DNA from: Pseudanabaena sp. M085S1SP2A07QC | GTDB taxonomy: Bacteria; Cyanobacteriota; Cyanobacteriia; Pseudanabaenales; Pseudanabaenaceae | Assembly (NCBI GenBank): GCA_020404895.1 | Contig: JADBWK010000004.1 | Coordinates: 109,506-173,505 of the forward strand | Length of the DNA: 64,000 nucleotides | Direction: 5' to 3' | Shown: piece by piece, positions 2,576 to 54,108 of the stretch | How the letters are laid out: each line of letters begins with the position of its first letter | Position numbering within the stretch: the stretch's first letter is position 1 | Program-made: the position numbers and the translations under genes | Notes under the pieces: model-generated | Database searches by the model: none | The model's input: the letters and a program-made list of their open reading frames with translations, nothing else | What the model was told of the DNA's origin: nothing

Positions 2576-4021
2576 ATGACTGACATGACTGCAACGGTTC
2601 AAGCACTTGTCAACCAACCATACAAATACGGATTTGTTACGTCTATTGAGTCGGACACGATTCCTCGTGGTCTGAGCGAAGATGTCGTCCGCATGATTTC
2701 GGCTAAAAAAAATGAGCCAGAATACATGTTGGAATTTCGGCTCAAGGCTTATCGTCAATGGTTAAAGATGCAAGAACCAACATGGGCGCATGTCGAATAT
2801 CCTGCGATCGATTACCAAAATATCGTTTATTATTCTGCACCCAAGCAATCGAAAAAGAAAGCAAGTCTTGATGAAGTTGATCCTGAATTACTAGATACTT
2901 TTGAGAAATTAGGGATTTCCATTAACGAGCAAAAGCGTCTGACCAATGTTGCCGTTGATGTCATTTTTGATAGCGTTTCGATCGCTACAACTTTTAAGAA
3001 AGATCTAGCCAAAGTTGGTGTAATCTTCTGCTCGATCACCGAAGCGATGCATGAATATCCTGAACTGATCAAAAAATATCTAGGTAGCGTTGTCCCGATC
3101 GCAGACAACTACTATTCAGCACTAAATGCTGCCGTATTTACCGATGGCTCCTTTGTATACATTCCCAAAGGCGTAAAGTGCCCGATGGATCTGTCTACCT
3201 ATTTCCGCATTAATAATGGCGATTCTGGACAGTTCGAGCGTACTTTGATTGTTGCTGAAGAAGGAGCCTATGTCAGCTATCTTGAAGGCTGTACAGCACC
3301 AATGTTTGATACCAATCAACTTCATGCAGCCGTAGTTGAATTAGTCGCCCTAGATGATGCCGAAATCAAATATTCCACAGTACAGAACTGGTTTGCTGGC
3401 GATAAAGATGGCAAAGGCGGTATCTATAACTTTGTGACTAAGCGTGGTTTGTGCCAAGGCAAAAACTCAAAGATCTCTTGGACTCAAGTAGAAACAGGTT
3501 CCGCAATTACTTGGAAGTATCCTAGTTGTGTATTGGTTGGTGAAAACTCCGTTGGCGAGTTTTACTCTGTTGCTCTAACAAATAATAAGCAACAGGCTGA
3601 TACTGGCTCAAAAATGGTGCATATCGGCAAAAATACCCGCAGCAAAATCGTTTCTAAAGGCATTTCCGCAGGTGGCTCCCAAAATAGCTATCGCGGCTTG
3701 GTGAAGATCTCACCCAAAGCTGAAGGCGCAAGAAATTATTCTCAATGCGACTCAATGCTGATTGGTGATTGCTCGCAGGCAAATACTTTCCCTTATATCC
3801 AAGTCCAAAACAATACCGCTAGAGTTGAGCATGAAGCCTCAACTTCTAAAATCGGCGAAGAGCAATTGTTCTATTTTCAACAACGCGGTATCGCAGTTGA
3901 AGATGCTGTCTCAATGATCATTAGTGGCTTCTGCAAAGAAGTATTTAATGCATTGCCGATGGAGTTTGCTGTTGAAGCTGATAAGCTCTTGGCTTTGAAG
4001 CTAGAGAATAGTGTTGGCTAG
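2576..4021 (+). CDS. sufB: Fe-S cluster assembly protein SufB
   Basis: 481 aa, full-length SufB-like sequence ([37 protein letters not shown]). RBS aggag lies 5' of the ATG. Confidence 0.97.
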
Positions 4022-4097
4022 ATTTGAAATATTTTGAGGGCAAAGCACTCACTGGAATTACCATATAACTATTATGGGATTCTTGATGATTATGTAG

Positions 4098-4379
4098 GTG
4101 ATGGATATGGCAGTTAAATTCATTCTTAGTGATTATGTCGAGGAAGCTCTAAAACAAGCAACCTATGACAAGTTAGACGATAACTCGTTTGTTGGACGCA
4201 TTCCAAGTTGTCAAGGGGTAATAGCATTTGGAGAAACACTTCGCGAATGTGAATATGAGGTGCAGTCGGTCTTTGAAGACTGGGTTCTTTTAGGATTAAG
4301 GCTAGGACATCACCTGCCAATCATTGGCGGGATCGATCTAAATCAGGAGCTAAAAAGTGAGTCGATTAGCGCCATGTAA
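4098..4379 (+). CDS. hicB: HicB-family antitoxin-like protein (UPF0150 fold)
   Basis: About 90 aa with the pattern FVGRIPSCQGVIAFGETLRECEYEV..EDW, typical of short HicB antitoxins. The start could be ATG 4101 or 4107. It overlaps the next ORF. Confidence 0.65.
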   Translation: MMDMAVKFILSDYVEEALKQATYDKLDDNSFVGRIPSCQGVIAFGETLRECEYEVQSVFEDWVLLGLRLGHHLPIIGGIDLNQELKSESISAM

Positions 4380-4590
4380 ACGTAAAGAGTTCATCCGAAA
4401 GCTCCAAAAACTTAAATTTGAAGGCGTGTTTTCTGGAACAAGGCATCAATTTATGATTTATAAACAATGTCGGCTTACAATTCCTTCAAACCTAGAATAT
4501 TCTGTTCCACAGCTAAAAATGATGATACGAGAAATCGAAAATATTTTAGGTCGAGAAATCACTATTGATGAGTGGAATGACTTGATTTAA
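4357..4590 (+). CDS. hicA: HicA/YcfA-family mRNA-interferase toxin-like protein
   Basis: 77 aa. KRKEFIRKLQKLKFEGVFSGTRHQFM..TIP matches the HicA layout, including the conserved His. GTG start overlaps the hicB end by 23 nt. Confidence 0.6.
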   Translation: MSRLAPCKRKEFIRKLQKLKFEGVFSGTRHQFMIYKQCRLTIPSNLEYSVPQLKMMIREIENILGREITIDEWNDLI

Positions 4591-4655
4591 GCTGTTCTGA
4601 AGTATAGATTTTGAACGAAAAGTACTACAATTAAAAGATAACTGTTAAGAAAAAA

Positions 4656-5438
4656 ATGATTGTTGAAAATAGTGAAGTAATTTTATCGGTCAAAGATTTG
4701 ACTGCGGAAGTTGGTGGAGTCGAGATTTTAAAAGGGCTAAATCTGGAGATTAAAGCTGGTGAAGTCCACGCGATTATGGGACCAAATGGCTCTGGTAAAA
4801 GCACATTCTCGAAAGTGTTAGCGGGACATCCTGCCTATACGGTCACAGGTGGTGAGATTATTTATAAGGGCGAAAACTTATTAGATTTAGCACCAGAAAT
4901 TAGATCTAGAGAAGGTATATTTTTAGCTTTTCAATATCCATTAGAAATTCCTGGGGTGACTAATTCTGATTTCTTGCGATTGTCCTATAACAACTTGAGA
5001 AAGCATAAAGGTTTAGAAGAGTTCGATATCATCGATTTTGATGACTTTATCCAAGAAAAGCTAGAAATCGTAGAAATGAATCCTAGTTTCTTGAGTCGCA
5101 GCGTTAATGAAGGTTTCTCGGGTGGTGAGAAGAAACGCAATGAGATTTTGCAAATGGCAATTCTCGATCCGACTTTGGCAATTCTAGACGAGACAGATTC
5201 GGGGTTAGATATTGATGCTTTGAGGATCGTGGCAGGTGGAGTGAATAAGCTCTCAACCCCTCTCAATTCTTCATTAGTGATTACTCACTATCAGCGCTTA
5301 CTGAATTACATTATTCCAGACTTCATTCATGTGATGGAAAATGGCAAAATTATTCTCACAGGTGGCAAAGACTTGGCTCTGGAACTAGAAGAAAAGGGCT
5401 ATGACTGGCTCAAAGAAGAAGAGGCGGTGTTGGCATAA
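4656..5438 (+). CDS. sufC: Fe-S cluster assembly ATPase SufC
   Basis: Walker [10 protein letters not shown], signature FSGGEKKR, Walker [11 protein letters not shown]. The stop overlaps the sufD ATG. Confidence 0.97.
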
Positions 5439-6823
5439 TGGCTATTCAAGTTTCTGAACAAGTGGAAAATCAAGCAGAACTAAAGGGCGCATTAAGCACT
5501 CGCAGTAAATTGGCTGTTGACAGCAAAAAATTTACTTCCCAAGTGATCAGTTTGGGTTCTGCGATCGCGATCGCTCAAGACACCGATCAGTTTGTGAGCG
5601 AGATTCGTCAATTGGCTAGCGATCGCCTAGCGAGTCTTTCTTTCCCAACCACCAAAGATGAAGAATGGAAATATACTGATGTTTCGTCTTTGGGAAATCT
5701 AACTTTTGCTAATCAACTGGCTAAGTCAGAGGATGTCGAAGCATTAATTGCTAAACATTCGGCTTCTGAAGCATCAGGTAACCTTATTGTGTTTGTGAAT
5801 GGCCAGTATAGCCAGAAGTTCTCAGATACAACGGGTGCAGTACAAGGTTTAGTTATTGGCACATTGGCAACTCTTGGCGATCGCATTCTACCCAAGCTGC
5901 GATCGCACCTCGCTCAGCATCCCGATGCGAATGATTATTTTACGAGTCTGAATACAGCTTGTATGAAAGATGTGGCGATCGTGCTTGCCCCAAAAAATCT
6001 TGTCGTCGAAAACCCAATCCAGCTTTTGTTTGTATCTGCACCACAGGCTGGCGCAACATTGATAACTCAGCCGCGCTGTTTGGTGATTGCAGAAAGCCAT
6101 AGTAATTTGACTTTTATTCAAACTTTTGTGGGAATTGATTCTCAAACCTATTTTACTAATACGGTAACAGAAGTTTGGCTTGCCGAAGGTGCAGAGGTTA
6201 ATCATACTAAGGTGCAGTGGCAAGGTGATGAGGCAGTGCATATCAATACGACTGCGATCGCTCAAGCTCGAAATAGTGTCTATAAAAATCAATCTATTAG
6301 CATCGGTGCGAAGATCTCTCGCCAGAATTTGATCGTGCATCAAATGGCTGAACAAACGCAAACTTCGCTGACTGGGTTAGCATTTGTCGATGGTGAACAG
6401 CACGCGGATACACATTCTGTAATCGCCCACAACTATCCGTACGGATCGAGTAAGCAATTGCACAAGTGCATAGCTGACGGTCGTTCCCATACAGTTTTTA
6501 ATGGCAAAATCCAAGTTGCGAAGTTAGCTCAACAGACTGATTCCGCCCAGCTAAGCCGCAATCTCTTGTTGTCTCCCAAAGCGCGAGTGGACACTAAACC
6601 CCAATTAGAGATTTTTGCAGATAATGTCAAATGCGCTCACGGCGCGACTGTCAGTCAACTAGATGCTGAGGAAATCTTCTATCTCCAAAGTCGGGCGATT
6701 GATGATGAGAGTGCTGCTAACTTGCTAACCTATGCTTTTGCAACCGAGGCGATCAACCAAATTCCGATTGTTTCGGTACAGCGATCGCTTAGTAATTTTG
6801 TGCTTGAAAAAACGAAGGGTTAA
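5438..6823 (+). CDS. sufD: Fe-S cluster assembly protein SufD
   Basis: 461 aa. C-terminal beta-helix region is homologous to SufB (KCAHGATVSQLDAEEIFYLQSR). ATGA coupling to sufC. Confidence 0.93.
   Translation: MAIQVSEQVENQAELKGALSTRSKLAVDSKKFTSQVISLGSAIAIAQDTDQFVSEIRQLASDRLASLSFPTTKDEEWKYTDVSSLGNLTFANQLAKSEDVEALIAKHSASEASGNLIVFVNGQYSQKFSDTTGAVQGLVIGTLATLGDRILPKLRSHLAQHPDANDYFTSLNTACMKDVAIVLAPKNLVVENPIQLLFVSAPQAGATLITQPRCLVIAESHSNLTFIQTFVGIDSQTYFTNTVTEVWLAEGAEVNHTKVQWQGDEAVHINTTAIAQARNSVYKNQSISIGAKISRQNLIVHQMAEQTQTSLTGLAFVDGEQHADTHSVIAHNYPYGSSKQLHKCIADGRSHTVFNGKIQVAKLAQQTDSAQLSRNLLLSPKARVDTKPQLEIFADNVKCAHGATVSQLDAEEIFYLQSRAIDDESAANLLTYAFATEAINQIPIVSVQRSLSNFVLEKTKG
6774..6823 (+). repeat. Left copy of a ~50-nt direct repeat (the functional sufD 3' end)
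   Basis: It re-occurs at 8984-9033 with about 8 substitutions by hand alignment. Confidence 0.85.
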
Positions 6824-6852
6824 TGACTTATAAGTAGGAAAGCTTAATTAAA

Positions 6853-6929
6853 TGTAGGATGTGTTAGTGCAACGTAACGCATCAATTAGTTGTCAATGAT
6901 GGGTTAGCGATAGCGTAACCCATCCTACG
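6853..6929. repeat. Double-hairpin palindromic element of the GTAGG(A/G)TG..CA(T/C)CCTAC family
   Basis: tgtaggatgtgttagtgcaacgtaacgcatc ... gatgggttagcgatagcgtaacccatcctac. Related copies lie at 19044-19128 and 63954-63983. Confidence 0.8.
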
Positions 6930-6963
6930 TTTAATTCCAACAACTTACTTATTGAGTATTTCA

Positions 6964-8262
6964 ATGCTAAAGAGTTTGCGTTTAGAAAATTTTAAAAGTT
7001 TTAAAAATGCCGAGCTTTCGCTTGGAGATTTGACAGTTTTAGTCGGGACAAATGCTTCAGGCAAGAGTAATATTCGCGATGCATTTCGTTTTTTGCATGG
7101 TATTTCGCGAGGTTATAGTATTGCTGAAATTATTGGCGAGAAATATGGGGAAGGTGGTGTACTGCAATGGCGAGGCATACGTGGTGGGACAAAGGAAATA
7201 ACTTATTGTGGGGCTGATTCTTTTGCGATCGCTATTTCTTTTTCCGTCCAAGATGGTGATACAGAATATGAGATGGATTACCGCATTGAGATAAGGCTTA
7301 CCGCTTTTAGTCCAGTACCGATTGTTGTTGCAGAGAACCTCCATTGTAGACAGAAAAAACACGCAATTTTTGACACAGTCGCTAGAGTTCATTTACAAAA
7401 TACTATTGCTGTTCGTTTTTATGATTATTACGAAATTGATGAAGTTAATGGAAGTGCTCTTGATCCATATCAATTTTTCCAAAACTATATTCCCATTCTT
7501 TTTTTAGCAGCGAGTGGAGTTAAACCCCATATTCAGAAGCTTGACAAAGAAAATTACAAAATACCAGTTGCAAGAAAATTTTGTGAACTAGCTTTAAATG
7601 CCATAAGTGACATGAGGTTCTTAGAGCTTAGTCCAGATTTGATGAGACTTCCAACTTTCTCAGGACAAAATATTTTAGGCGATCGCGGGGAAAATTTGTC
7701 ATCGGTGATGTTAGATATCTGTCGTGATGAAACTCGTAAGGCGATTTTATTGGATTGGTTGCAATCTTTAACGCCAATGGATGCAAAAGATTTTGATTTT
7801 CCCGAAGACTTCACTGGCAAAGTTCTACTTAGAATCGAAGAAGCAAGTGGTCAGAAAACAACCGCTTATAGTGCATCGGATGGAACATTACGATTTTTAG
7901 GATTGTTGGCAGCACTTTTGGGTAATCAGCGATCGCGCTTTTACTTTTTTGAAGAACCTGAAAATGGCATTCATCCTAATCGGTTAAGCTTGCTGTTGCA
8001 GCTTATGCAGCAAGAAGTCGCCAATAGCTCGATGCAAATTGTGATTACTACTCACTCACCGCTTTTGTTGAATTTCTTAAGCCCCGAAAGCCTCGAATAT
8101 GCTTCTTTAATGTATCGAATCGGCGATCGCAGCGAGTCACGCATAACCAAAATTATGGACATTCCCAACGCTAGGGAACTTGTTGTCAATGAAGGCTTAT
8201 CGAGCTTACTAGATTCAGGATGGCTAGAAGATGCGATGTATAGCAATGTAAGCTTTGCTTAG
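6964..8262 (+). CDS. AAA_15/AAA_21-type ABC (SMC/RecF-like) ATPase, OLD/PARIS-AriA/AbiL-like; its C-terminus has been remodelled by a MITE
   Basis: N-terminus MLKSLRLENFKSFK. Walker A GTNASGKS, signature-like SDGTLRFLGLL, Walker B FYFFEEPENGIHP, H-loop ITTHSP. The track start is TTG at 6952, and ATG at 6964 is the more likely start. The last 7 codons and the stop lie inside the MITE at 8239-8346. Confidence 0.85.
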   Translation: MLKSLRLENFKSFKNAELSLGDLTVLVGTNASGKSNIRDAFRFLHGISRGYSIAEIIGEKYGEGGVLQWRGIRGGTKEITYCGADSFAIAISFSVQDGDTEYEMDYRIEIRLTAFSPVPIVVAENLHCRQKKHAIFDTVARVHLQNTIAVRFYDYYEIDEVNGSALDPYQFFQNYIPILFLAASGVKPHIQKLDKENYKIPVARKFCELALNAISDMRFLELSPDLMRLPTFSGQNILGDRGENLSSVMLDICRDETRKAILLDWLQSLTPMDAKDFDFPEDFTGKVLLRIEEASGQKTTAYSASDGTLRFLGLLAALLGNQRSRFYFFEEPENGIHPNRLSLLLQLMQQEVANSSMQIVITTHSPLLLNFLSPESLEYASLMYRIGDRSESRITKIMDIPNARELVVNEGLSSLLDSGWLEDAMYSNVSFA

Positions 8263-8346
8263 GACATAAAACCCAAAAGATGGCAGAGCGAAGCTCTGCC
8301 ATCTTTTGGGTTTTGAATTGTCCTATCTATCTCTTACGTTGCTATA
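8239..8346. mobile_element. 108-bp MITE, copy 1 (TIR TATAGCAATGTAAG / CTTACGTTGCTATA, internal 20-bp-stem hairpin)
   Basis: Near-identical copies at 49742-49849 and 54001-54108. The outer TA dinucleotides are compatible with a TA target duplication. Confidence 0.9.
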
Positions 8347-8376
8347 TTTCCTCGAAGATGAAGAGGTGCAGAACGC

Positions 8377-8979
8377 ATGAATGTTCTGATTATTCTTGAG
8401 GATTTTGTCAATGATGAGAGTATGGTGCTACCGATTGTCAGAGCGATGATGACAGCGATCGGTAAGCCAAAAGCAAAAATTACTGTCTGCAAAAATCCAC
8501 GCCTCCGAGGTCATGCTGAAGCCCTGAGATGGGAAAAGATTCAAGAAATTTTGCAAAGATATGGTGGTATGACCGACTTGTTTTTGGTCTGTGTTGATCG
8601 CGATGGCAATGAAGATAGACGGGCAAAACTTGATGGACTTGAAAAACGAGCGCAAGAATTTTTAGCAGAGAAATATCAAAAGCCCAAAAAGTTTATAGGC
8701 GAAAATGCTTGGCAAGAATTGGAAGTATGGGTTTTAGCAGGATGCACCGATCTTCCAAAAAACTGGAATTGGGCAGAAATTCGTGCTGAGAGAAAATCTA
8801 AAAAAGGATATTTCATGCAATTTGCGGAACTGCGATCGCTATTAGAAGCACGTTGTCAAGGCAGAGGAATCCTCGCAGAAGAAGCGGCTAATCGTTACGA
8901 TCGCATTCGTAAACGATGCCCTGAAGATATTGGGAACTTAGAAACAAATATTCAAGAATGGCTAGTTAGGAATGATTAG
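8377..8979 (+). CDS. Toprim-like small protein (DUF4276-like, by recollection), partner of the upstream ABC ATPase
   Basis: 200 aa. Ordered acidic motifs are LIILED (N-terminus), LVCVDRDGNED (DxD) and QELEVWVLAG. The ancestral ATGA overlap with the ATPase gene can be reconstructed. Confidence 0.6.
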   Translation: MNVLIILEDFVNDESMVLPIVRAMMTAIGKPKAKITVCKNPRLRGHAEALRWEKIQEILQRYGGMTDLFLVCVDRDGNEDRRAKLDGLEKRAQEFLAEKYQKPKKFIGENAWQELEVWVLAGCTDLPKNWNWAEIRAERKSKKGYFMQFAELRSLLEARCQGRGILAEEAANRYDRIRKRCPEDIGNLETNIQEWLVRND

Positions 8980-8983
8980 TGTT

Positions 8984-9033
8984 CAGTACAGCGATCGCTT
9001 AGTAATTTTGTATTTGAGAAAACAAAAGCATAA
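8984..9033 (+). repeat. Right copy of the direct repeat: a displaced, diverged sufD 3' end (would encode VQRSLSNFVFEKTKA*)
   Basis: It aligns codon-for-codon with 6774-6823 (VQRSLSNFVLEKTKG*). A hairpin terminator follows immediately. Confidence 0.85.
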
Positions 9034-9038
9034 ACCCT

Positions 9039-9081
9039 AAAAAATAAGAGACGACGCAATTGCCTCGCCTCTTATTTTTTT
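9039..9081 (+). terminator. Hairpin plus T-run, probably the ancestral sufD/suf operon terminator
   Basis: aaaaaataagagacg..cgcctcttattttttt, directly after the displaced sufD 3' end. Confidence 0.6.
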
Positions 9082-9158
9082 CCTCTATACTTCGCTAAAA
9101 ATGCTATAAGTCATCCTGTGAAAAATGCTAGGATGCTGAACATCAAGAATGTATCGGG

Positions 9159-11327
9159 ATGAGAAAATTAATGCGTTGGTCTATCGTGCTTATGCTCAGT
9201 GCTACATTAGCAGGAGCGAGCGCCCCACTAATTACCGCTTCTTCTGACTCAGATATTACTCTGAATGCAAGCTTAGGAAATAATCGAGACGGCAAATCAT
9301 TTGATCCGCTTACATACTCTCCCGTTGATCAAAGACTTGCTAAATTAGAAACTCAGGCTAAACAGCAAAGTTCTAATACTACCGATACTGACCGTGTTCG
9401 CGCTCGTTTGGTAATTGCGGATATTCATCTCAACAACCGCAAGCCTCGCGAAGCGATCGCTGCTCTTGATAAATTGGAAACTGAGTATCCAGTTTTAGCC
9501 GATTATGTTTTGCTCAAACGCGCACAGGCTCAAACCCAACTGCGCGATCTCCAAGCAGCAAAAGCAACTTGGGAGCAACTTTTAGCTAAGTTCCCTGATA
9601 GTCCTGCATCTGCTGAAGCGATGTTTGCTTTAGGACAAAATCAACAGCTTTTACAAAAATTTCCTGCTCATCCGCGATCGCAAGAAGTTGCCCTACGCTT
9701 ACTAGCCCAAACTCCAAATCGAGTTGATCTAATGGCGCATCTGGCGACTTACTTTAGTGATTCCAAAGAGATTGTCCCGATTTTAAATCGTCTAGTTGCT
9801 AGTTCACCATCACTCACCTCTGATCAATGGTGGGCGATTGCCGATGGATATTACAATAAGTTTGAATTTGGTCGAGCTGCTAATGCTTACGCCCGTGCGA
9901 CTGTAAATCCTATAACTGCCTACAATTACGCCCGTAGCCTGCATCGGGGCAAACAATTCGACAATGCGATCACCGCTTATAACCGAGTTGTCCAGCAATT
10001 TCCGCAAAGTCCTCAAGCTCCTCGTGCTCTCATTCGGATTACGCAGATAGGTTCGCCTGAAGCTGCGATCTCGGTAACTGATCGCATTGTGACAAGCTAT
10101 CCCGATACCGCAGCCGAAGCCTTAGCAATTAAGGCTTCGATTTTGCAAGATAAACTTGATAGCCCTAAATCCGCAAGTGACGTTCGTAATCTATTGTTAA
10201 GTCGCTATGGCAGTAGCGATGATGCTGGTGAATTACGTTGGCGAATTGCTAAAGGACAAGGGCGATCTGGACAGGTCAAGAATGCGATCGCCACGGTTGA
10301 CGCATTGATTGCCAATAGTCCAGATAGTACATCCGCAGCCGAAGCGAGCTTCTGGGCAGGTAAATGGGCTAATCAAATTGGCGATAAAGCTAAAGCTAAA
10401 AAGTTTTTTGAGTTTGCGATTCGTCAACATCCCGATTCCTATTTTGCGTGGAGATCGGCGAGTTCTCTTGGATGGAATGTGGGAACCTTCACGACAGCAC
10501 GCTACGTTGCACCAGCGATCGCATTACCTAGTGCAAGAGTAGCTTTGCCAGCGGGTTCGGCGAAACTACAAGAGTTGTATATCCTCGGTCTAGATCGTGA
10601 TGCACAATCGCAATGGATGTCAGAATTGCGCGGTAAGCGAAAACTGGAACCCAAGGAAATTTTTACTGACGGTGTTTTGCGTGTTGCGAATCTAGATAAC
10701 TTGATTGGAATTAAAACGCTGGAAAGCTTAAATTGGATTGATGTTCCTAATTCGCAAAGAGCCGAAATCGCCCAACTCAAGCAGCATCCTGCATACATAC
10801 ACTCACTCTATCCGTTTCATTACTGGGATATCATTTCCAACTGGTCACGCGATCGTAAACTCTCTCCAGCTCTCGTCATTGGTTTGATGCGTCAAGAATC
10901 CCGATTTGAGGCTCAAATTCGTTCTCGTTCAGGTGCGATCGGTTTGATGCAAATCATGCCAGATACAGGCTCATGGATTGCTAGTAAAAAGGGCGTGAAT
11001 AGCTATAATCTCGACAGACCTGAAGATAATATCAATTTTGGGACTTGGTATCTGGACTATACCCACAGCCGTTTTGGAGATAACACCATGCTTGCCATTG
11101 CTAGCTATAATGCAGGACCTGGTGCGATCGGTAGATGGGTAGAATCGAGAGGTTTGGGAGATCCTGATGAGTTTGTGAATAATATTCCCTACGATGAAAC
11201 TAGAGATTATGTGTCCAAAGTTTTAGGTAACTATTGGAACTACCTGCGGTTGTATTCTCCTTCAGTACAACAACAGATAACAGCTTTGGAACAGCCTAAT
11301 AATATCAATGCCTCAACTAAGTTCTAA
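9159..11327 (+). CDS. Soluble lytic murein transglycosylase (Slt70-like: signal peptide, TPR/superhelical region, C-terminal SLT domain)
   Basis: SLT motifs LMRQESRFE, GLMQIMPDTG, ASYNAGPG. N-terminal signal sequence. Confidence 0.9.
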   Translation: MRKLMRWSIVLMLSATLAGASAPLITASSDSDITLNASLGNNRDGKSFDPLTYSPVDQRLAKLETQAKQQSSNTTDTDRVRARLVIADIHLNNRKPREAIAALDKLETEYPVLADYVLLKRAQAQTQLRDLQAAKATWEQLLAKFPDSPASAEAMFALGQNQQLLQKFPAHPRSQEVALRLLAQTPNRVDLMAHLATYFSDSKEIVPILNRLVASSPSLTSDQWWAIADGYYNKFEFGRAANAYARATVNPITAYNYARSLHRGKQFDNAITAYNRVVQQFPQSPQAPRALIRITQIGSPEAAISVTDRIVTSYPDTAAEALAIKASILQDKLDSPKSASDVRNLLLSRYGSSDDAGELRWRIAKGQGRSGQVKNAIATVDALIANSPDSTSAAEASFWAGKWANQIGDKAKAKKFFEFAIRQHPDSYFAWRSASSLGWNVGTFTTARYVAPAIALPSARVALPAGSAKLQELYILGLDRDAQSQWMSELRGKRKLEPKEIFTDGVLRVANLDNLIGIKTLESLNWIDVPNSQRAEIAQLKQHPAYIHSLYPFHYWDIISNWSRDRKLSPALVIGLMRQESRFEAQIRSRSGAIGLMQIMPDTGSWIASKKGVNSYNLDRPEDNINFGTWYLDYTHSRFGDNTMLAIASYNAGPGAIGRWVESRGLGDPDEFVNNIPYDETRDYVSKVLGNYWNYLRLYSPSVQQQITALEQPNNINASTKF

Positions 11328-49741: not shown

Positions 49742-49849
49742 TATAGCAATGTAAGCTTTGCTTAGGACATAAAACCCAAAAGATGGCAGAGCGAAGCTCT
49801 GCCATCTTTTGGGTTTTGAATTGTCCTATCTATCTCTTACGTTGCTATA
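49742..49849. mobile_element. 108-bp MITE, copy 2
   Basis: By eye identical to copy 1 (8239-8346). It lies 93 nt upstream of the Rieske gene start. Confidence 0.9.
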
Positions 49850-54000: not shown

Positions 54001-54108
54001 TATAGCAATGTAAGCTTTGCTTAGGACATAAAACCCAAAAGATGGCAGAGCTTCGCTCTGCCATCTTTTGTGTTTTGAATTGTCCTATCTATCTCTTACG
54101 TTGCTATA
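54001..54108. mobile_element. 108-bp MITE, copy 3 (central loop inverted: gagcTTCgctc versus gagcGAAgctc)
   Basis: Same TIRs as copies 1 and 2, plus one g-to-t change in the right stem arm. It sits exactly where a HATPase_c domain should be encoded. Confidence 0.9.

Follow-up and report, generated by a model that had tools for sequence, protein, structure and literature searches.

The question raised by this locus is whether two genes wedged into the suf operon of Pseudanabaena sp. M085S1SP2A07QC encode an immune module and, if so, whether such a module has already been catalogued. The analysis covered a window of 64,000 nucleotides (assembly GCA_020404895.1, contig JADBWK010000004.1, positions 109,506 to 173,505); the positions given below are those of the window, and the features of the locus lie on its forward strand. 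The two genes, one for an ATP-binding cassette (ABC) ATPase (6964..8262; 432 aa from the ATG) and one for a DUF4276-like, Toprim-like predicted nuclease (8377..8979; 200 aa), are both intact open reading frames (ORFs). The pair represents an uncatalogued family whose design is already known, rather than a new kind of system, and with moderate confidence we regard it as an immune module of the OLD/PARIS/HEC-01 type, directed against phages or mobile elements. The original prediction, made from the nucleotide sequence of the window, had proposed an undescribed module of a split ABC ATPase and a small Toprim-like partner. This architecture was borne out; 'undescribed' holds for the family, which has no Pfam, PADLOC or NCBIfam model, but not for the class, of which HEC-01 and MADS3-4 are already catalogued.

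The ATPase and its Toprim-like partner

Both ORFs are genuine genes and not chance ORFs, because the ATPase matches Pfam AAA_21 and AAA_15 and the partner has hundreds of homologues. An in-frame TTG is present at 6952, upstream of the ATG of the ATPase gene, and the start was placed at 6964 since homologues begin MLK(S/K)LRLENFK. The gathering scores were passed for AAA_21 (4.2e-33, 116 bits, cut-off 27) and AAA_15 (4.7e-23, 82.9 bits, cut-off 32.1), and all motifs quoted for this protein in the original prediction (LRLENFKSF, GTNASGKS, SDGTLRFLGLL, FYFFEEPENGIHP and ITTHSP) were found. The Walker A motif spans G28-S35 with K34, the signature-like motif is S305-DGTLRF, the Walker B motif is Y327-FFEE331 and the H-loop is T362-THS. 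In 30 homologues, G28, S32-G33-K34-S35, S305-D-G-T-L-R-F, Y327-F328, E330-E331 and T362-T363 are invariant, and H364-S365 is kept in at least 90%. The AlphaFold2 (AF2) model (pLDDT 76, pTM 0.81) has an ABC-type fold and was matched by Foldseek to PtuA (Septu/retron), Rad50, SMC heads and Thermus OLD (E = 3e-12 to 5e-10, probability 1.00). Sequence similarity to solved structures was marginal (14 PDB chains at E ≤ 0.001 in phmmer, AriA not among them), and NCBIfam matches to RecF and RecN were weak. The protein belongs to the SMC/Rad50/OLD/PtuA structural clade, and its prediction as an AAA_15/21 ABC ATPase was thereby upheld.

The partner in the window had no match in Pfam, PADLOC-DB v2 or NCBIfam, and nothing was obtained at E ≤ 10 with the Pfam DUF4276 model (PF14103, gathering threshold 30.2 bits). 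Homologues are nevertheless numerous: 256 were found in 90%-identity clusters (best 1e-121), mostly from cyanobacteria with some from Chloroflexota and Methylomagnum, and the family amounts to 449 clusters among 1.84 billion representatives. More than 540 relatives were found in GTDB species genomes, from Cyanobacteriota, Chloroflexota, Planctomycetota, Myxococcota, Acidobacteriota, Desulfobacterota, Gammaproteobacteria, Bacillota, Spirochaetota and Actinomycetota. The resemblance to DUF4276 suggested in the original prediction was recovered by profile-profile comparison. The partner-family profile aligned with the DUF4276 profile over 167 columns (hhalign, 85.1%, E = 6.2e-6), VDRD aligning with VDRD and EiEvW with ELEAW. 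When single sequences were used, hhalign matched the family only weakly to one DUF4276 protein (probability 5.5%, E = 0.007), and a control comparison with a PDC-M07B protein was negative. Matches of several distant relatives to Pfam DUF4276 were colinear and sub-threshold (13.9–17.1 bits, E = 0.007–0.065; the best among 38 relatives reached E = 3e-4), and one relative gave a sub-threshold match to Pfam RloB (E = 0.0097).

The AF2 model of the partner (pLDDT 95.5) shows a beta-alpha-beta-alpha-beta-alpha-beta core, with strands at 2-7, 34-37, 68-74 and 105-111, and a basic helical domain in its C-terminal part (116-199). The succession of core elements is compatible with a four-stranded parallel Toprim sheet of order 2-1-3-4. 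Across 79 loci E8, D13, D74-R75-D76, E114, E116, W118 and W132 are invariant, and D9, R81, W112, Q113, R136, K142, C181 and E183 nearly so. E8 is kept in 79 of 79 loci and sits right after strand 2-7; D74-R75-D76 is kept in 78 of 78 and ends strand 68-74. The Toprim signature has been defined as a Glu after strand 1 and a DxD after strand 3 (PMC12065111), and the partner shows this signature, as a Glu directly follows its first strand and a DxD ends its third. The acidic residues in the motifs that had been predicted to be of Toprim type (LIILED, VCVDRDGNED and ELEVW, all found) are invariant and stand at Toprim positions. Both DUF4276 and RloB have been placed in the Toprim superfamily (PMC12065111), and HEC-01B has been described as TOPRIM-like with an OLD metal site (bioRxiv 10.1101/2024.01.29.577857). 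In a search of BFVD with the partner model, an RloB-like phage protein ranked second (probability 0.98, E = 0.03, TM 0.45). In our judgement the partner forms a sister family, itself divergent, to DUF4276/RloB, and we assign it to Toprim on the grounds of this homology, of the positions of its motifs and of the literature, not of a direct structural match.

Pairing, spread and relation to catalogued systems

Wherever upstream sequence is available among the 80 species-level loci, the gene immediately before the partner gene, on the same strand, encodes a homologue of the window ATPase, and in 8 of 8 member neighbourhoods that were looked up the gene preceding the 200-aa gene encodes an AAA_15/21 ATPase. 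A 4-bp overlap of the stop and start codons (ATGA, GTGA or TTGA) occurs in 70 of 86 loci. The pairwise identities of ATPases and partners were correlated over 79 loci (Mantel r = 0.83; 0 of 1000 permutations above 0.23). The strict pairing, the overlap and the correlation together indicate that the two genes are passed on as a unit and presumably function as one. They form a strict operon in which translational coupling is ancestral.

The pair is also horizontally mobile and spans more than 8 phyla. Its phyletic pattern is patchy, with about 50% identity across phyla, and its genomic site differs even among Pseudanabaena. Some copies are carried on plasmids; on a Rathayibacter plasmid the pair lies between relaxase and coupling-protein genes. 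In other Pseudanabaena (L001:6600-6603 and L011:8602-8612) it lies between polyprenyl synthetase and amino-oxidase (desaturase-like) genes, again an insertion into a housekeeping string, with the start of the amino-oxidase gene overlapping the end of the partner gene; in L011 the pair is joined by Uma2 and PIN genes. Copies are often broken. At locus L064, in another cyanobacterial genome, an insertion sequence (IS) with a 324-aa transposase occupies the ATPase-partner junction (8803-10000) and partner residues 1-15, which include E8, D9 and D13, are gone; at L049 the ATPase is frameshifted; at L041 its N-terminal half is missing while the partner is intact; and at L080 the partner starts at residue 13. 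These independent disruptions are a turnover typical of costly immune genes.

In principle, such a pair could serve as an accessory DNA-repair or recombination module, comparable to RecF-RecR or SbcCD. RecR is a Toprim-domain protein of about 200 aa and the partner of RecF, and the Rad50 and SMC neighbours of the ATPase model and its weak RecF and RecN matches fit such a role. The patchy distribution, which resembles that of horizontally transferred genes, the identity of only about half across phyla and the variable sites within a single genus do not, and neither do the plasmid-borne copies, those embedded in Hma systems (see below) and the frequent inactivation. The partner model moreover contains no coiled coils and no RecR-type HhH or zinc-finger elements. 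We consider a repair function very improbable.

The relation to catalogued systems was then judged from PADLOC scores that were calibrated with reference members on plasmids. The best PADLOC matches of the window ATPase were four PDC-M07A models (2.8e-70 to 6e-59, full length, 235 bits). HEC-01A came after these (4.1e-44, 149 bits, partial, residues 209-397) and was followed by generic AriA, AbiLi and mad3 models. PDC-M07A is thus the closest catalogued relative of the ATPase, and PDC-M07 shares the operon layout with its 4-bp overlap. The ATPases of true members, however, on Photobacterium pAQU1, an Acinetobacter plasmid and Anabaena pANACY.01, score about 700 bits on PDC-M07A against 235 for that of the window. 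Their partners are of 160-165 aa, match PDC-M07B at 1e-67 to 1e-77 and bear a weak resemblance to PIN proteins; hsdS and hsdR flank the Photobacterium pair. The label PDC-M07 was rejected, as the true B component is this different, PIN-like protein of about 160 aa and neither the window partner nor any of its 38 relatives matches PDC-M07B. Nothing was found in the literature under the name PDC-M07.

HEC-01 likewise consists of two genes in this order, the Toprim-type partner being about 200 aa long, and it shares with the family of the window pair an Hma-embedded context, seen in about 10% of the family's loci. It differs in that the window ATPase is closer to PDC-M07A than to HEC-01A, and in that the window copy is embedded in no defence system and lies between sufD and an SLT-domain gene. 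The window partner gave nothing at E ≤ 1 with HEC-01B, and 3 of 38 relatives reached 9e-4. For comparison, on a Meiothermus plasmid the ATPase scores 553 bits on HEC-01A, and it is paired with a bona fide DUF4276 protein (Pfam 3.6e-28) that scores 268 bits on HEC-01B. This HEC-01-type pair lies inside a type I restriction-modification (RM) locus, where it and neighbouring genes annotated as DUF4433 and macro domain are both nested between hsdS and hsdR (L018:2218-3911). We take the DUF4433 and macro-domain genes to be a DarTG-like pair.

In MADS, the gene for the AAA_15/21 ABC ATPase MAD3 precedes that for MAD4, a DUF4276 protein, and MADS3-4 has been listed with PARIS and AbiL among ABC ATPase plus TOPRIM systems (PMC11464382). 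MADS, however, comprises several genes and includes a methyltransferase, which is absent at the window pair. It was rejected, with the ATPase at 96.9 bits on MAD3 (cut-off 420), one of 43 partner-family members at E = 0.0054 on NCBIfam MAD4 and no match of the window partner. Literature searches for Mad3 and Mad4 by name returned unrelated papers only. The PADLOC mad3 model also matches the housekeeping ABC ATPase SufC (L019:6389-7168) at 1.5e-21, and matches of this model on ABC ATPases are for this reason no evidence of MADS.

PARIS is also a split ABC ATPase plus Toprim nuclease, but its AriB is a DUF4435 protein of about 300 aa, so that the partner is, as had been stated, much shorter at 200 aa. 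PARIS was rejected because the partner matches neither Pfam DUF4435 nor PADLOC AriB; the AriA match of the ATPase is to a generic AAA_21-type model only. OLD and GajA combine an ABC ATPase with Toprim chemistry, and Thermus OLD (6p74) is a neighbour of the window ATPase in both sequence and structure. In OLD and GajA the two parts are fused, whereas they are two ORFs in the window and at all related loci, and the Toprim core of the window partner is DUF4276-like with its own helical C-terminal domain. Structurally, the ATPase model came closest to PtuA of Septu and retrons (Foldseek E = 3e-12, TM ~0.4-0.47); Septu PtuA is partnered with the HNH nuclease PtuB, and its sequence similarity to the window ATPase is marginal (E ~6e-4). 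By profile hidden Markov models, the pair is not PARIS, MADS, PDC-M07 or HEC-01. It classifies at sequence level as an uncatalogued, effector-swapped relative, since its ATPase is nearest PDC-M07A and the partners in PDC-M07 and HEC-01 are PIN-like and canonical DUF4276 proteins, respectively. An exchange of effectors on one ATPase lineage, PIN-like in PDC-M07 and DUF4276-like Toprim in the window family, is the simplest reading.

Genomic context and candidate functions

Hma and RM genes were counted by direct tblastn in 80 loci, which replaced a near-versus-far comparison of PADLOC matches. The pair was embedded in Hma or Hma-like systems in 8 of the 80 species loci, from six phyla (for instance HmaA-HmaB-pair-HmaC in L058 and HmaA-pair-HmaB in L084). 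The HEC candidates were themselves defined by such guilt-by-embedding. Elsewhere the pair adjoins HsdM or Eco57I-like methyltransferases, and type I RM loci on plasmids harbour sister ATPases whose partners are PIN-like or DUF4276 proteins. Judged from this context, a role of the pair in defence is likely. In E. coli, a cold-seep representative of HEC-01 has been reported to confer protection from one or more of the phages T4, T5 and T7 (PMC12881386).

We infer the defence role, the trigger, the target and the nuclease activity of the partner; the domain identities, the strict pairing and co-evolution, the ancestral coupling, the horizontal spread and the Hma-embedded loci are shown by the data. 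The ATPase would be the sensor and regulator, and the partner the nuclease effector with a predicted metal-binding core of Glu, DxD and ExE after strands 1, 3 and 4. In PARIS the ATPase scaffold releases or activates a Toprim effector that cleaves tRNA, and in WonAB a WonA variant without ATPase activity lost the WonB protein. By analogy with both, the ATPase may hold or control the effector until an infection cue is received. Once released, the Toprim protein would cleave DNA or tRNA and thereby halt the infection, a response that probably comes at a cost to the cell.

Several results weigh against this reading. Most cyanobacterial copies, that of the window included, stand alone amid housekeeping genes and have no more than toxin-antitoxin genes close by. 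The near-versus-far comparison of PADLOC neighbours showed no enrichment beyond the Hma cases, a result whose counts are inflated by promiscuous models: the near and far sets both matched the same Hma systems, mad3 matches SufC and PD-T4-6 matches kinases. Payne et al. saw no protection by the HEC-01 representative in their assay. The partner reaches the threshold of no curated model. Foldseek of its model against the PDB recovered no Toprim structure, the best matches being generic alpha/beta proteins (lumazine synthase, decarboxylase wing domains and EF-Tu, E ≥ 0.04), and a sequence-profile search of the PDB gave zero matches. As both searches lacked a Toprim match, no solved structure anchors the partner fold. 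Finally, the copy in the window may not work, since a miniature inverted-repeat transposable element (MITE) removed the acidic tail of its ATPase, and in WonAB it is on C-terminal extensions of the ATPase that the nuclease is predicted to dock.

The context could also be that of a guard on restriction-type systems, with the pair sensing phage anti-restriction proteins as PrrC and PARIS do and being activated solely upon inhibition of a cognate RM or Hma system, and with the stand-alone copies having escaped or guarding unlinked systems. The PARIS trigger is the anti-restriction protein Ocr and that of PrrC is Stp, and this reported triggering agrees with a guard, as do the Hma-embedded loci and the sister pairs between hsdS and hsdR. 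About 85% of the loci examined, however, have no adjacent RM or Hma gene, and no RM gene flanks the cassette in the window. We regard the guard function as unlikely.

A selfish addiction module, similar to a toxin-antitoxin system, in which the Toprim protein is the toxin and the ATPase its neutraliser with no dedicated anti-phage role, appears equally unlikely. The pair would then be maintained through the harm that its loss does to the cell. Such a module would fit a tightly coupled, mobile operon that is wedged into housekeeping operons, occurs on plasmids and often adjoins PIN, PemK, Gp49 and Uma2 genes. An ABC ATPase of 430 aa with intact catalytic motifs would, however, be atypical as an antitoxin, and simple sequestration was excluded for the related architecture in the WonAB study. 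The embedding in Hma and RM systems points to immunity, and the ease with which copies are disrupted, as at L041 with half of the ATPase lost and an intact partner, argues against strict addiction.

A bolder form of the immune reading remains tentative, and we think it rather doubtful in full. In that form the pair would be a distinct immune family of more than 540 genomes with a minimal 200-aa Toprim effector that the catalogues missed, and a PDC-M07-type ATPase would have swapped a PIN-like for a DUF4276-like effector. It would act as a PARIS-like abortive or guard system with its own trigger and target, and the Pseudanabaena copies would be wired into stress-regulated suf and polyprenyl synthase operons, so that their expression tracks physiology.

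The cassette and the MITE in the window

The cassette extends from about 6824 to 8981, between the sufD stop codon (sufD ORF, 5438-6823) and a hairpin with 21-bp arms followed by a T run (9039..9080, inverted repeat I2). It is bordered by a direct repeat, D1 (6772-6839 versus 8982-9049, 78% identity in a 68-nt alignment), of which the left copy holds the 3' end of sufD (6772..6823). The right copy holds a relic of that end (8982..9033), a diverged copy of the last 17 sufD codons that follows the partner stop codon and would encode SVQRSLSNFVFEKTKA and a stop codon. The claim that the genes form an inserted cassette is confirmed by this repeat and by the different location of the pair in other Pseudanabaena. 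The neighbouring sequence is about 90% identical to Pseudanabaena sp. lw0831. The same arrangement at sufD is found in the genomes of two related species, L019 and L020 (~81-90% nucleotide identity), the relic being kept, and longer, in L019; the insertion of the cassette is therefore old.

The leader of the cassette (6824..6963), with its conserved hairpin elements, is kept in L019 and L020. In this leader, no sigma-70-like promoter was found in a promoter scan, and there is one weak terminator-like hairpin (6858-6883). The hairpin at 9039-9080 is probably the original suf operon terminator, now downstream of the cassette. The position of the cassette between sufD and this terminator makes read-through from sufBCD plausible. 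The core of a leader hairpin (window 6905-6925) is reverse-complemented relative to L019 and L020 (GGGTTAGCGATAGCGTAACCC versus GGGTTACGCTATCGCTAACCC) with the stem preserved, a difference that is a small palindrome flip.

The MITE lies at the junction of the two genes (8241..8344). It is 104 bp long, with terminal inverted repeats of 12 bp (TAGCAAYGTAAG), an internal stem of 22 perfectly paired bp (8268-8314) and a duplicated TA target (8239-8240 and 8345-8346), and it is missing from L001, L019, L020, L099 and L100. Compared with P. minima, with two syntenic genomes and with three metagenome strains that are near-identical, the window is longer here by an insertion of 106 nt, made up of the element and a TA. 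In those relatives the two genes overlap by ATGA, which bears out the proposal that they were originally translationally coupled. On the three metagenome contigs without the MITE the ATPase differs by two residues ahead of the insertion, and the flanks are almost identical to the window. Two further copies with the same terminal inverted repeat are present in the window (49744-49847 and 54003-54106), one identical to the copy at the junction and the other differing at 3 positions, and the MITE family looks recently active in this genome. The insertion between ATPase and partner is very recent.

The last 7 codons and the stop codon of the ATPase gene lie inside the MITE, which replaces the last 11 residues, a conserved acidic tail (YFLEDEEVQNA), with YSNVSFA. 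The uninterrupted allele P0391 ends ...AMYFLEDEEVQNA, and the acidic tail with its GAGG is conserved across loci. Alignment with uninterrupted alleles places the displaced old 3' end of the ATPase gene at 8347..8380 (codons FLEDEEVQNA, old TGA at 8378-8380). The MITE leaves 114 nt between the two genes, and the Shine-Dalgarno-like GAGG of the partner (8363-8366) lies in the displaced tail sequence, 10 nt upstream of the ATG. The element folds as RNA with -81 kcal/mol (z = -10.7); its hairpin was not called in an intrinsic-terminator scan, and its U-rich stretch is paired within the stem.

With its acidic tail replaced and the translation of the partner uncoupled, the window copy may be weakened or mis-balanced. 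A stronger statement, that this copy is dead or crippled whatever the family does, we consider a real but minority possibility. The lost tail, the broken coupling and the stable hairpin in the transcript favour it, and an IS struck the same junction at L064. The identity of the MITE to another copy in the window and the near-identical strains without it mean that the ORFs have had no time to decay; the intact ORFs are for that reason uninformative on function. Set against a crippled copy are the intact state of both ORFs with all catalytic motifs kept, the GAGG retained upstream of the partner ATG and the failure of the hairpin to be called as an intrinsic terminator.

Two other variable features were seen at the locus. 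Between sufB and sufC (window 4098-4590) there is a small overlapping gene pair of 93 aa and 77 aa, which is probably a toxin-antitoxin system of the HicAB type, since in L099 the Pfam annotation of the first of these genes makes its product UPF0150/HicB-like. The spacer concerned (4021-4617) is not kept in L019 and L020 and is therefore a second variable insertion slot in the suf operon. In the spacer between the partner and SLT-domain genes, some of the near-identical strains, L099 (5935-6040) and also L101, carry a different insertion of ~104 nt that is missing from the window and from L100; this is a further small-element polymorphism at the locus.

ABC ATPase sensors combined with interchangeable nucleases are a recurring immune design, seen in OLD, Gabija, PARIS, Septu, WonAB and HEC, and the family described here is a clean example from nature of a single ATPase lineage exchanging its effector. 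Current catalogues miss this family, which is found in hundreds of species and especially in cyanobacteria, whose phage defences have been little tested. Pseudanabaena offers a natural experiment, in that strains near-identical at the locus differ by one 104-bp MITE which removes both the tail and the coupling. If the family is not validated, the pair is one more uncharacterised candidate. If it is, the very small effector would make it a convenient model for the control of a Toprim nuclease by an ABC ATPase.

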